Assembly (NCBI RefSeq): GCF_032062105.1
Contig: NW_026932975.1
Location: 434,001-498,000 of the forward strand
Length of the DNA: 64,000 nucleotides
DNA from: Saccostrea cucullata
Lineage: Eukaryota
Direction: 5' to 3'
Positions 1 through 15,174 of this stretch are shown piece after piece; position 1 is the first letter of the stretch; each line of letters opens with the position of its first letter. The notes below the pieces were generated by a model that searched no databases, had not been told where the DNA came from, and was given only the letters and a program-made list of their open reading frames with translations. Both the position numbers and the translations under genes were made by a program.

Positions 1-3000
1 AGTCCTCGTCTATTCTCCCATCAGCATCATTGTCTGAAACAAAATCAAATTTATCATTGTATGATCATGTTTTCGTATTGAGGAAATCTACCCTGTTACT
101 TATTAACATTAGTACGCTGTTAATTTCAGTTTACCTTTTCCATCACAGTCCTCCTCATCTACCTCACCGTCACAATCGTTATCGATTTCATCGCCCGGGG
201 ACATCGCCTCCGCTTGGCAACCCTAAAAATTACAAAAGAAGCTGAAAAATTTAGAAAGAGTTGTTCTTAAAACATAAAACTTTTAATTTAGAAACTAAAA
301 ATTTTTTTAACTGTAAAATTTTCATTGTGATAATATGTCCCCTACAAAAACTTTGTTTTCTTCAATTAAAATATGTACATGATACAATGATATTGCTTCA
401 AAAATAGTTCGGAAATCCTTATTGGCATTTTCCAAACAAAAAAATCTCTGGCAATGGAACTCTGATCTTTAATCATATAAAACGTCCACTGAATATGGTC
501 GACTAACAATCTTCCATGCGAAATTCTACATCTGTCTTCATTTACCCGTACGCACTATAAAACAGCTGTCAGTATTAAAAAAAAATAATAACAAAAACTT
601 TTTTCAATTTCAAGGTTGTTATAATAAATTTCCATTATAAAATACCTATTTATTTTAACTACTTGAACAACAAATGATCAAACTATGTTTGTATAAATTA
701 TTCTATATATTTAAGCTATTATTCTAGATATCACTCACAGAATTAACAGGTTTTGTTAGCAGACCAATAGGGAATCCATAAGACTCGAGGTTAGCTTTAC
801 CGAACACGATTCCACCAATGACCGTGTTCGGGTTGTTGTGCGTGACGGTGTGGGTTCCAACAGATATTTTCACATATCCCGCCGCTAGGTTGGTGCCAGG
901 GATGTGGACGTACGTTTGATTTTGTGGAAGGGGTTTTCCATCTAAAATTAGGCCCGCCGTCTGGCTGGAATCAACCACAAACATGAAATAGTTAAGATAC
1001 TGGCCTTTGGAGTATTGAGGTGTAGTAAACGTGTAGTCGGCAGCATACTGTTCGATTGGAGGAATGGTGATCAGGCATGGATCTGCTGCATCGGAAGGCA
1101 GATTTGTATGTTTTGCCTGTGTTGCCGAGAGCTGATACAAAGCAATAGGGTGGTTAGATGTCACATGAGCGTACAACTTAGAGCTGTAATTCCTCTGCAC
1201 ATACTGCCCAGCGTGATTAATATTAAAATGATCCGTGAAATTTTTACTATCGATGACTCCAGTTACCCTGACACTGGTGTGTCCTTGGCTGGCAACAAAT
1301 CTGAAAACATCACCCACGTCTCTTTCAGGGATTGGCACTGTAGCAAAGTTTTTACCCCAGGCCTGGACAGGAAGCAACATTTCCGTCAAATGATCACGTG
1401 AATTGCCAGTGTTACCAGCCACAGATACAACAGCTTTCTTGTTTCCGCTGATGACACCCACAGGTTTGTTCGCGATGATATGAGAACCAGTGAGGTCCCC
1501 GACAGAAGAGATTTCAAAGGTACTGAAGCGGTTTAGGGTAACGTTTATCCATTGGTTTCTGTGGTACACGTGACCATGGAAATTAACGCTAATGTTTGGA
1601 TGGTTAGCAAGCTTGATGTGCACCCGAGTGTGGTCGTGGACTCCGATCACTGCAAATACACAGTAGTAATAGGACGGGGAGTAGGAGATGGTGTAGTATT
1701 CTTTTCCCAGCACATCAGTAGGCAGTGCCAGGTAGGCATCGTCCGAGTAGACCTCTCTGTTTACTCCATACACCACGATTTCTTCATCAGCCGAGATCGA
1801 AATCCCTTTGGTGCTTAGCTCGGTGTGATTTAACCGGAAGTCTTGATCCACGGCAACACGGTGCACTACTCCGTGAGTTATAACAAAATGCTGGTTAATA
1901 CGTGGATGGTGAGATTTTGGTGACGTCACATTGACGTGTACGGGTTTGTTGCTGGACGTGGTAATGAAGATCTCGGGTTTGATGTCGGTGTGTTGTAGAA
2001 TCTTGTTATCCATGAAGGTTATAATAAAGTGTTTTCCTTTACTGTCCAGTGCTCCTAAAGTCATAAAATCAAAGCTGGTTGCATAAACACCTTAACATCT
2101 GTTTTCTAATTGAGTTTTTAATGTTCAGGATACTAGTATATCATATATAATTTTTTACTTAATTCGAGATGAACACCGTTTTGTCGAACCAAAAAAAAAA
2201 CTGAACTTTTGCCTTAAGCCCTTAAGTTGAAGGAACATAGTTTGGCCCCAAAATGCAATTAACTTGAAAACAAATTTAATTTTTAAAAAAATACATATAT
2301 CTTGTGCTCGCTTCCATGACGTATGAAAAATCTTGTTTGGCTTAAGTTTTATTTCAAATGAATATTGTTTAAAATGATTATTAACTTGCAATAAGCATTA
2401 ATATAAACCGGTACTCATGCATAAGATTTACAATTTTATTTGAAACAACACTTTTTTCTTCGTATTGTCTTCCCACAAATTTCTATTAATATAGAAAATT
2501 TGGTGTTATGACTATTTCGAATTCCGCTGACTTGTAGTTTTTATTGATTTATTTTTTATGTTGTTTTAGATTTTCATTTCGCAGAGGGATTTTTCCCAAA
2601 TCGTTTAACCCTCTGTACAGTCACCAGAGTTAACTTTAAAAACGTATTTTTGTAATATTTTGAATTATATTGGTAACCGGTGACAGTTCGTTTATAAAAT
2701 TATTTATACACTTTCATCGACGATTTCAAATAATAAACATCAGTAATTAAAAGTATATTATTTCTTTATTCTTTGCATGTAAAACATTTCCCCAAGCGAG
2801 TATTCCCCTAAGATCAAACAAGTTCAAGTACACCCCAATTATCAACGGGAGGTCAACATTACCGCTACATTGCCAAAAATTTCAACTCATTACCGCTACA
2901 TTTTTTCAGATTTTCGACCGATCATCACCGCTACATTTTCGGCAAAAAACAACTCATTACCGCTACATATTGAATCAGCCAAAAGCAACTCATTACCGCT

Positions 3001-3842
3001 ACATATCGACTTAGCCAGGTTTGGTTCGGTACATGTATATGAGTTCTAATCAACAGAATTTGGACAGTGGTTGAAAGTTTTCTTCGGTTTGGTTTTTTTT
3101 TTTTTCAGTCTTCGAGAAGTTGAAGAGTGCTTCGAGTTTGATGTGTTTTCCGAAGCACATTGAACGGTCATCGTCATTTCCACCTACAATTTGGGCAGAT
3201 GCGGATGTTGAGTGTGAAAGTTTTCACAAAGAGTTTGGCACAATGTTTTATAGTTCACATCCGAGCATTTTTTATTTTTTTTGGCCAAGATTCAGTCTGT
3301 CCAGACAAAAAGTTACTTGAAAATGCATGCTGCAAGAAACAGGATTCTCCCAGGACGAAAAGAGAATAACAACACAGCGCAAAAAAGGGAACTAAAAGCT
3401 ATATACGACAGTGGGGAAATGACAAGGAAACAGTATGTAAAGTAAATGGCTTTCAAGGCTTTACTGATTGTGTAAAAACATTTGACAAAACTTAAAAAAC
3501 ATCCTATTCAAAGTCCTACGTTCACCTACCTGTGGTGAGCAGGGGAAACGGGTCTTATGCATATATAGGTTGTACTGTACACGCATAAGTGGCTGGCTAA
3601 CGAAAGAGGCAATGTAGCGGTAATGTAAGTTATTTTGTAGCGGTAATGACAATGTAGCGGTAATGAAAATTTTGAAAATATAGCGGTAATGATACGCACC
3701 CTTATCAACGTGACAGTATTAATTAATTCAGTATTTATTAATTGGATTTTCTCTTTTGAGTTTTGCAAAGCATATTTTAAAAGAGCTCACCATAAACAAA
3801 TGGAAGCACCACGAGGGCAAAAATCCACAACTTGTGCGCCAT
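1..3842 (-). CDS. Secreted IgGFc-binding-domain protein, paralog 3 (3' end runs off the window)
   Basis: Exons with GT-AG sites and consistent phases: 3842-3791 (signal peptide MAHKLWIFALVVLPFVY|G), 2054-739 (IgGFc_binding domain: ALDSKGKHFIITF...DAYLALPTDVLGKEY...DHLTEMLLPVQAWGK...ESYGFP), 222-135 (GCQAEAMSPGDEIDNDCDGEVDEEDCDGK), 33-<1 (DNDADGRIDEDC...). Confidence 0.88.
2847..3701. mobile_element. Non-autonomous DNA transposon with subterminal repeat arrays
   Basis: Direct repeat TTATCAAC on both flanks (2839-2846, 3702-3709). Imperfect TIRs GGG...CATTACCGCTA. Five left copies and four inverted right copies of CATTACCGCTACA. Confidence 0.8.
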
Positions 3843-15000: not shown

Positions 15001-15174
15001 CAAAAACGCAACAATGAATTTTGTTCCCGTTATCCAATGCAGCTTAAAGATAAAAAAATTTATTGAAGACAGGACAGGATTTGTTGGTGTACATTGTAAA
15101 AAATAAGAATCTGTACATAACTCACAGTACACCAAAGGAAGGAAAAATAGTCCAATACACAAAATGGACTTCAT
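12001..15174 (-). CDS. Secreted IgGFc-binding-domain protein, paralog 1 (apparent 2-nt frameshift at start of exon 2; possible pseudogene allele or assembly error)
   Basis: Exons 15174-15126 (MKSILCIGLFFLPLVY), 15042-13744 (IgGFc_binding domain), 12980-12842 (S/T/P linker plus CDAPPMKKGDEIDNDCDGRLDEEDCDGQ), 12180-12130 (DNDGDGRIDEDCSGTEL), 12020-12001 (TVIGRK*). Spliced length is 1558 nt, not a multiple of 3. Confidence 0.85.
12590..12790 (+). mobile_element. Diverged SINE 3' part
   Basis: TCTTTCGGATGGGACCGTAAAACC...ATGAGTGAAATATTCTCG...ACGTTAAACAAACAAAC resembles the reverse complement of the 11064 SINE. Confidence 0.6.

Follow-up and report, generated by a model that had tools for sequence, protein, structure and literature searches.

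The stretch of DNA analysed here, referred to as the window, comprises 64,000 nucleotides (nt) of Saccostrea cucullata (contig NW_026932975.1 of the RefSeq assembly GCF_032062105.1); its positions 1-15174 contain three tandem minus-strand genes, A, B and C, coding for small proteins with a single IgGFc_binding domain (PF17517, also called FCGBP_N), which is followed by a short acidic tail and by a C-terminal glycine with basic residues. The domain is known, its stand-alone form is not new and the tail is ancient; new here are the amidation-type end conserved on these genes and the predicted ASRAH-like fold of four repeats. Taken as a whole, the products are best explained as secreted, likely amidated, calcium-stabilised, glycan-binding proteins of mucosal surfaces, a composite prediction that we consider plausible, if somewhat short of an even chance.

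Three tandem genes for single-domain proteins

Each gene has five exons: a signal exon, one large exon containing the whole core, two small acidic exons and a last exon of 20 bases. They measure 52, 1316, 88, 51 and 20 nt in gene A, 52, 1313, 88, 51 and 20 nt in gene B, and 49, 1299, 139, 51 and 20 nt (1558 nt in total) in gene C. The GT-AG spliced products of A and B are exactly the RefSeq proteins P0003 and P0001, of 508 and 507 amino acids (aa), respectively; the exon-2 frame of B, the middle gene, is identical to P0001, which is named IgGFc-binding protein-like, Saccostrea cucullata. Gene A extends beyond the window start, with 18 bases of exon 4 and the whole exon 5 lying in sequence L001. 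An earlier, sequence-only reading of this DNA had recognised three tandem genes, each with its own ATG and signal-peptide exon, one IgGFc_binding domain and two small acidic-motif exons, and had described the exons as phase-conserved; this description holds, the intron phases being 1,0,1,1 in both A and B, except that four exons were read instead of five, the 20-base stop-bearing exon, with which A and B splice to P0003 and P0001, having been overlooked. The RNA data are eight runs that all come from a single related organism with about 95% identity; the assembled individual itself contributed none. The features are as follows, all on the minus strand.

3791-3842: gene A exon 1, start codon (ATG) and a hydrophobic leader resembling a signal peptide, with a GT donor in phase 1 (spliced product; RNA joint 2053-3790)
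739-2054: gene A exon 2, the FCGBP_N core in full, PF17517, predicted to form four beta-sandwich repeats (splicing exactly to P0003)
135-222: gene A exon 3, Cys linker and first acidic unit, DNDCDGxxDEE-x-C (motif scan; RNA joint 221-738)
1-33: gene A exon 4, its first 33 bases out of 51, coding for the second acidic unit; what remains lies before the window
L001 9637-9656, before the window: gene A exon 5, 20 bases, ending in VIGRK-stop (splicing to P0003)
9859-9910: gene B exon 1, start codon (ATG) and a leader resembling a signal peptide (splicing exactly to P0001)
7108-8420: gene B exon 2, FCGBP_N core, PF17517, modelled at a confidence mostly over 90 (Pfam; AlphaFold2 model)
6733-6820: gene B exon 3, Cys linker and first acidic unit (motif scan; RNA joint 6819-7107)
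6569-6619: gene B exon 4, second acidic unit (motif scan; RNA joint 6619-6733)
6438-6457: gene B exon 5, VIGRK-stop, amidation-type end, with AATAAA 12 bases downstream (splicing to P0001)
15126-15174: gene C exon 1, ATG and signal-peptide-like leader (RNA joint 15028-15126)
13744-15042: gene C exon 2, the FCGBP_N core, whose own frame is open (PF17517; 93.5% identical to the S. echinata orthologue P0014)
15028-15029: gene C, two-base shortfall that breaks the frame with the signal exon (related-organism RNA)
12842-12980: gene C exon 3, a spacer rich in Ser, Thr and Pro, with the Cys linker and the first of the acidic units (motif scan; RNA joints to 13744)
12130-12180: gene C exon 4, second acidic unit (motif scan; RNA joint 12180-12842)
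12001-12020: gene C exon 5, VIGRK-stop (related-organism contigs run from exon 4 to IIGRK-stop; loose end 12132, X1 and X3)

That these are separate, probably secreted single-domain proteins and not one FCGBP-like polyprotein, as the sequence-only reading had proposed, is borne out by the in-frame stops in exon 5 of each gene, by the identity of the spliced products of A and B with RefSeq proteins and by the RNA joints. Among 15 of the 71 joints that were inspected, those in the genes (221-738, 2053-3790, 6619-6733, 6819-7107, 12180-12842, 12969/12980-13744/13747 and 15028-15126) connect exons of the same gene, and none of the 15 links two genes; contigs in X1 and X3 continue from C exon 4 into the IIGRK-stop exon. 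Weighing against separateness are its dependence on this inspected subset of joints, and the existence of public two-domain models that fuse neighbouring genes (C. virginica P0135; Mytilus P0192, P0201 and P0505), according to which read-through may occur in C. virginica and Mytilus. P0135 shows the same gene order in C. virginica; since it contains an internal signal peptide, its fusion points to a modelling artefact.

Gene C, as assembled, meets a stop at codon 39. At 15028/15029 six runs of the related organism (X1, X10, X23, X6, X3 and X19) have two bases more than the window; run X22 has the same 15028 joint, its letters not being displayed, and run X21 has no coverage there. The core of gene C is 93.5% identical to P0014 and its branch is not longer in the tree; a second gene C copy, sought in the oyster's own genome assembly, was not found. 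The shortfall is thus either an assembly error or a very recent null allele, and gene C encodes the same build as A and B, out of frame in this assembly. The ratio of non-synonymous to synonymous substitution rates between A and B is 0.11, and the two genes are under purifying selection; synonymous sites are saturated in the comparison with C.

A leader of 17-18 hydrophobic residues, read from the sequence, lies on its own exon N-terminal to the PF17517 domain, and the proteins are almost certainly secreted. They contain 7-8 N-glycosylation sequons, and the gene B product has a single Cys outside the tail.

The head domain: relatives, predicted fold and function

The PF17517 matches of the three genes score 195.5, 197.5 and 200.8 bits, against a Pfam cut-off of 25.6, and IgGFc_binding is the sole Pfam family above cut-off in the proteins. 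VWD, C8 and TIL, whose absence had been claimed from the sequence, gave no match at E<=1 in the Pfam profile search, and the stop is reached about 55 residues past the core, with no vertebrate-type VWD-C8-TIL unit before it. The oyster's own genome contains at least 130 PF17517 matches, three of them on this contig; the figure is a lower bound, which includes fragments and probably haplotype copies. Two more tandem arrays of domain plus tail were seen in the same genome, one of six copies (G000:C11847, 150675-257108) and one of three (G000:C12505, 290884-311612).

A quick tree of 95 rows, built from a quick search with P0311 left out and with weak deep forks, placed the genes within a clade of 22 Pinctada, Mytilus and oyster rows (Shimodaira-Hasegawa-like approximate likelihood ratio test, SH-aLRT, 99). 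Because both A/B and C have orthologues from Ostrea and from Crassostrea or Magallana beside them, the split between A/B and C is older than these oyster genera, as is the array itself. Orthologues of the genes include XP_034301800, XP_022328301 and XP_011437823. A and B each pair with an S. echinata partner, while the Methylococcaceae proteins group with other bacterial or unnamed rows and not with oysters; as the deep forks are weak, no direction of gene transfer is claimed. The same clade includes an oyster paralogue (P0149, P0150, P0163) with an extra Cys-rich N-terminal region of ~200 aa, which has no Pfam match, and with the same Gly-dibasic end.

Passages of a 2016 survey (Lang et al., PMC4948705) describe stand-alone FCGBP_N in a few amphioxus proteins without any other domain, invertebrate members mostly without VWD, and 564 bacterial proteins with the domain. 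The oyster proteins resemble the members of that family in having the same N-terminal domain behind a signal peptide, in the absence of VWD that prevails in invertebrates and in the presence of bacterial relatives; in contrast, the DNDCD tail, the Gly-basic end and the fold are absent from the text passages of the survey, whose supplementary figure S5 may draw a MopE box after the domain. Vertebrate FCGBP has the N1 domain in common with the oyster proteins, which lack its VWD-C8-TIL units; mouse FCGBP has no N1, and the role of the human N1 domain is termed unclear in passages of PMC11796319, so that the small one-domain oyster proteins would be a handy tool for studying this part of a major mucus protein. 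Unlike the oyster genes, the axolotl-type multi-domain group lacks the tail and has lost several of the conserved polar residues. One protein of Ambystoma mexicanum (P0228, XP_069460991.1), 7017 aa long, is matched by the query in 17 stretches and appears to contain little else than FCGBP_N domains in tandem.

The AlphaFold2 model of P0001 is nearly all beta, with a mean predicted local distance difference test (pLDDT) score of 87, a predicted template modelling (pTM) score of 0.85 and a core mostly over 90 in pLDDT. Residues 21-131, 132-246 and 247-349 match mutually at 93-97% hhalign probability, the reversed controls being under 2%. When repeat 1 (residues 23-132) was compared with 48,161 solved chains, TM1070 (1nc7) came first (Z 10.3, root-mean-square deviation (rmsd) 4.2, 106/116 aligned) and ASRT (2ii7) third (Z 6.9, the next unrelated row having 7.0); in the predicted model, repeat 1 is an eight-stranded beta-sandwich of the TM1070 type. 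Repeats 2 and 3 are assigned this fold by homology to repeat 1, and the core as a whole is predicted to consist of four beta-sandwich repeats.

TM1070 and ASRT belong to the ASRAH superfamily (PF07100), whose domains, according to passages of De Souza et al. 2009 (PMC2739507), form tetramers, or dyads or tetrads within one chain, with a pocket that lies partly between units and a predicted sugar binding. This organisation would be paralleled by the four predicted repeats of the oyster core, for which 1nc7 is the best solved match in repeats 1 and 4, and on the basis of the model the core likely works like an ASRAH tetrad, its membership having no sequence-level support. The oyster proteins differ from the superfamily in several respects: ASRAH domains are described as prokaryotic, no significant profile match was obtained, identity is 4-12%, and the hallmark Trp and Asn are not evident, a conserved Phe or Tyr (F27, Y137, F254, Y357) being found by eye in the place of the Trp and no conserved Asn after strand 2. 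The comparison is weakened further by repeat 4 (350-452), which has no sequence match to repeats 1-3 in hhalign and which, when folded alone (pLDDT 90), retrieved 1nc7 first and 2ii7 sixth with a Z for the former of 6.8 (rmsd 3.4, 83/116 aligned), within the range that the structure-search tool terms common; by the ASRT profile, shallow with its 6 sequences, which reached at best 12% probability against the repeats (reversed control up to 4%); and by the fact that sugar binding is itself a prediction for the ASRAH family. Sequence searches of the PDB gave one chance match at E 0.93 and then none with profile A1. A whole-model Foldseek search was discarded, its hits being generic multi-domain beta proteins with TM-scores of 0.15 or less, and ESM Atlas searches with repeat 1 and with the tail returned no usable family. 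Among the literature matches listed, no paper linked FCGBP_N to ASRAH, described the tail or named these orthologues; ECOD may already hold the fold assignment.

Among the tailed and the myxobacterial proteins, six polar residues, D123, D204, H239, E242, D341 and Y442, are kept from myxobacteria to oysters; the axolotl-type group has lost part of this set. Its conservation suggests a pocket in the head. Glycan binding by the head is tentatively proposed by analogy, the balance leaning slightly against it; the ASRAH match provides a concrete sugar-binding test for FCGBP_N.

The alternative that fares best sees the head as a protein-protein or self-assembly module and the oyster proteins as structural parts of mucus or adhesive, cross-linked via a hydrophobic C-terminal strand and calcium bridges. 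It draws on vertebrate FCGBP, a structural mucus protein whose IgG binding was not reproduced according to passages of PMC11796319, on the TSP1, VWD, VWA, EGF and PKD adhesion modules of the long relatives, on the report of oyster proteins of this annotation in mucus and pediveliger larvae (PMC6337334), and on the 17 tandem matches of the domain in P0228. We consider it unlikely: of the six larval proteins, five are of the zonadhesin type, and a link to genes A-C could be made for none of the six, human N1-N2 is monomeric on non-reducing gels in the passages cited (PMC11796319), the gene B product offers a single Cys outside the tail, and the conserved polar set speaks rather for a pocket.

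The same residues could be taken as the site of an unrecognised metal-dependent enzyme, acting for example on glycans or cell walls, in which Asp, His and Glu of the repeat-end strands would be catalytic and the tail would stabilise the protein in sea water. D123, D238/H239/E242, D341, Q325 and H418 are indeed strongly conserved where the tail is present and in the myxobacterial proteins, but degraded in the axolotl-type group, and passages of PMC2739507 report secreted ASRAH tetrads fused to amidases; however, no enzyme family or solved structure was matched by sequence in the Pfam and PDB searches and the best fold matches are non-catalytic; an enzyme is improbable.

The acidic tail and the C-terminal end

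The whole 64-kb window contains six D.D.DG..DE motifs, all within exons of genes A-C; each gene has two Dx[DN]xDG units with later acidic residues and flanking Cys, and 17 of the 35 tail residues are Asp or Glu. The tail was found in 50 of the first 120 homologue matches, many of the remainder being single-exon frames, and behind the domain in 163 of the 211 informative homologues, that is, the 464 full-core proteins minus the 253 that end <=35 residues after the core. Its carriers include Mytilus, Pinctada, Argopecten, Solemya, a chiton, Aplysia, Owenia, Lingula, Watersipora and Branchiostoma. The tail is also present in long proteins with TSP1, VWD, VWA or EGF modules (it was found in 29/30 long animal proteins and in 2/45 of the other long matches), and, in the amphioxus clade, P0260 has it together with four VWD-C8-TIL units. 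In the oyster's own genome, 21 of the 24 tail-motif matches follow a PF17517 match on its downstream side at a distance of <=2 kb (none in the reversed control), one lies at 16 kb and two have no listed domain match. These data identify the tail as an ancient, general appendage of FCGBP_N and not as an oyster invention; the sequence-only view of a lineage-specific architecture is not supported, as domain plus tail is shared by molluscs with an annelid, a brachiopod, a bryozoan and amphioxus, and stand-alone forms are known in the last (passages of PMC4948705). In the majority of invertebrate members, the Pfam domain is thus prolonged by a module that has no annotation so far. In Branchiostoma (P0076-P0080, P0084), a furin-like site and a hydrophobic C-terminal segment follow the tail, which suggests shedding of the head-plus-tail unit.

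The resemblance to bacterial architectures noted from the sequence proved to be real, the domain-plus-tail unit being present in three Methylomicrobium loci and in a Methylosarcina fibrata cluster, ahead of PKD stalks. These Methylococcaceae proteins (P0292, P0482, L002, L003, L008) have the same head, Cys linker and double acidic tail as the oyster proteins, from which they differ in the PKD stalks that follow and in having no Gly-basic end. Among the myxobacterial-type FCGBP_N proteins the tail was sought in 120 and found in none, and the axolotl-type group is likewise without it. In L002, L003 and L008 (about 5000-8150), the Methylomicrobium FCGBP_N-tail-PKD genes occupy one conserved site; in L002 and L008, nearby frames resemble, by eye, type VI secretion genes.

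Passages of PMC3123361 describe Dx[DN]xDG as a calcium motif with a later acidic ligand, and similar repeats are found in CglD (passages of bioRxiv 2023.10.19.562135). The oyster tail shares the Dx[DN]xDG units, the following acidic residues and the flanking Cys with thrombospondin type 3 repeats, myxobacterial CglD and Cu-binding_MopE (PF11617); it differs from thrombospondin type 3 and MopE in having only two units, no TSP_3 match and a PF11617 match that is below cut-off and covers half of the model (17.4 and 18.1 bits against 27, model positions 17-30 of 30). A Cys lies 7-20 residues upstream of the motif in 162/163 tailed homologues, and among 93 distinct modules, their kinship uncorrected, both Cys of the second pair are present in 41 and absent in 45, the second alone is present in 7 and the first alone in none; since the upstream Cys is near-universal and the second pair largely covaries, the tail would seem to hold two disulfides. 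The tail reads best as two predicted Dx[DN]xDG calcium loops, and calcium binding by it is in our view quite probable. Two results weigh against this: no TSP_3 match at E<=1 was found by Pfam in P0001 or P0003, and in the AlphaFold2 model, which contains no ions, the tail is unconfident, with a pLDDT of about 50. Of the acidic metal-binding-type tail suggested by the sequence-only reading, an acidic tail of predicted calcium-binding type is upheld, while the copper (MopE) label lies below the Pfam cut-off.

A copper or zinc store, or a nucleator of shell mineral, as the MopE label and the first reading proposed, is a quite improbable role for the tail. Its high content of Asp and Glu, the weak PF11617 match, which in a two-copy Pinctada protein exceeds the cut-off at 30.7 bits, and the occurrence of the same unit in methanotrophs would fit such a role; nevertheless, the oyster proteins stay below the cut-off, the units have no His or Met ligands, the Cys residues appear paired, and amphioxus and an annelid, which have no shell, retain the unit, its position after the domain being constant.

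All three genes end in x-V-I-G-R-K-stop, a hydrophobic residue followed by Gly-Arg-Lys, coded by the separate 20-base exon. An amidation-type end, defined as hydrophobic-Gly with 0-5 basic residues, or Gly with two or more basic and up to four further residues, was found in 42 of 50 bivalve-clade records and in 2 of 435 other proteins over 300 aa; the short amphioxus forms have a different ending. The variants (Gly alone, GR, GRK, GRR, GRRR, GKR-xx, GRRRKR-xxx) would all reduce, after convertase and carboxypeptidase trimming, to the hydrophobic residue before Gly, which is the PAM substrate rule, and the residues preceding Gly are variable except for their hydrophobicity. The carboxypeptidase E (CPE) and PAM substrate pattern is given in passages of PMC6313938 and has been applied to mussel peptides in those of PMC5577615. 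Like the CPE/PAM substrates described there (mussel myticalins and Gly-ended Chlamydomonas secretory proteins, respectively PMC5577615 and PMC6313938), the oyster proteins combine a signal peptide with a C-terminal Gly and basic residues; unlike these, the putatively amidated oyster product would be a folded 490-residue glycoprotein and not a short peptide. The genome contains 26 Cu2_monoox_C matches, by which PAM is not separable from related monooxygenases. Amidation of the end by carboxypeptidase E and PAM appears probable from the sequence; if true, it would extend the animal PAM substrates beyond peptides, and the amidated C-terminal peptide would escape ordinary proteomics. The count is to be read with caution, as the 50 records of the clade were chosen by hand, with alleles and isoforms among them (the 42 have 20 different endings of 8 residues), and eight of the 50 have no end signal, looking by eye like alternative or truncated models.

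That the proteins are precursors, releasing their acidic, Cys-bonded C-terminal part as an amidated peptide that serves in signalling or defence, is very improbable, as the likeness of the end to the amidation signals of neuropeptides and antimicrobial peptides, including Gly-dibasic plus a few residues, is set against the lack of a dibasic site between core and tail in A and B, an anionic tail and residues before Gly that vary in all but hydrophobicity.

Returning to the secreted glycan-binding protein, A and B would enter the secretory pathway as separate proteins of ~507 residues and be N-glycosylated there; the acidic tail would fold around calcium and two disulfides, and the Gly-Arg-Lys end would be trimmed and then amidated. 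The four-repeat beta-sandwich head may then bind glycans on mucins, food particles or microbes, and action on a mucosal surface (gill, mantle, gut) is a putative role that we somewhat favour. The tail may represent the ancestral spacer of the FCGBP_N unit, holding the head off a TSP1, VWD or PKD stalk in the long relatives, and the bivalve short forms would have lost the stalk and kept a soluble head with an amidated hydrophobic end, which might guard against carboxypeptidases or dock the head on a partner. A broader and more speculative reading, unlikely to hold in all its parts, is that FCGBP_N, from gliding bacteria to human gut mucus, is a single-chain ASRAH sugar-binding tetrad, that its ancestral unit carried a disulfide-bonded double calcium loop, common to animals and some bacteria and lost in vertebrate-type FCGBP, and that the mussel and oyster form is a free, amidated 53-kDa mucosal lectin. 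Counting against the proposed role, the assignments of ligand, metal, amide and tissue are all predicted from sequence or model, and papers that report 'IgGFc-binding proteins' from oyster mucus or larvae could not be linked with genes A-C. Mentions of limpet and oyster 'IgGFc-binding' proteins were not used as support, the proteins being of the VWD type or unidentified.

Neighbouring features

A two-exon BTB-BACK-PHR gene (BTBD1/2-like) occupies 15996-17557 on the plus strand, divergent from gene C, with its start about 0.9 kb away. Downstream of gene A, about 5 kb before the window, L001 contains a single-exon innexin frame of 418 aa (3336-4589, minus strand). Further along the window, 32937-34334 on the plus strand is an open frame of 465 aa, low-complexity and charged, with no Pfam match; on the minus strand, 44660-47201 contains the exons of a receptor Ser/Thr kinase resembling a type I activin/BMP receptor (kinase by profile match, subtype by eye), and 56607-62019 those of an alpha/beta hydrolase (Abhydrolase_3) that is, by eye, hormone-sensitive lipase-like. 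Within the array itself, intronic and intergenic repeats at 11060-11410, 6170-6320, 9200-9700 and 13150-13700 have a very high RNA read depth and are probably short interspersed elements; the repeat element at 11.1 kb has a partial copy at 6.2 kb.

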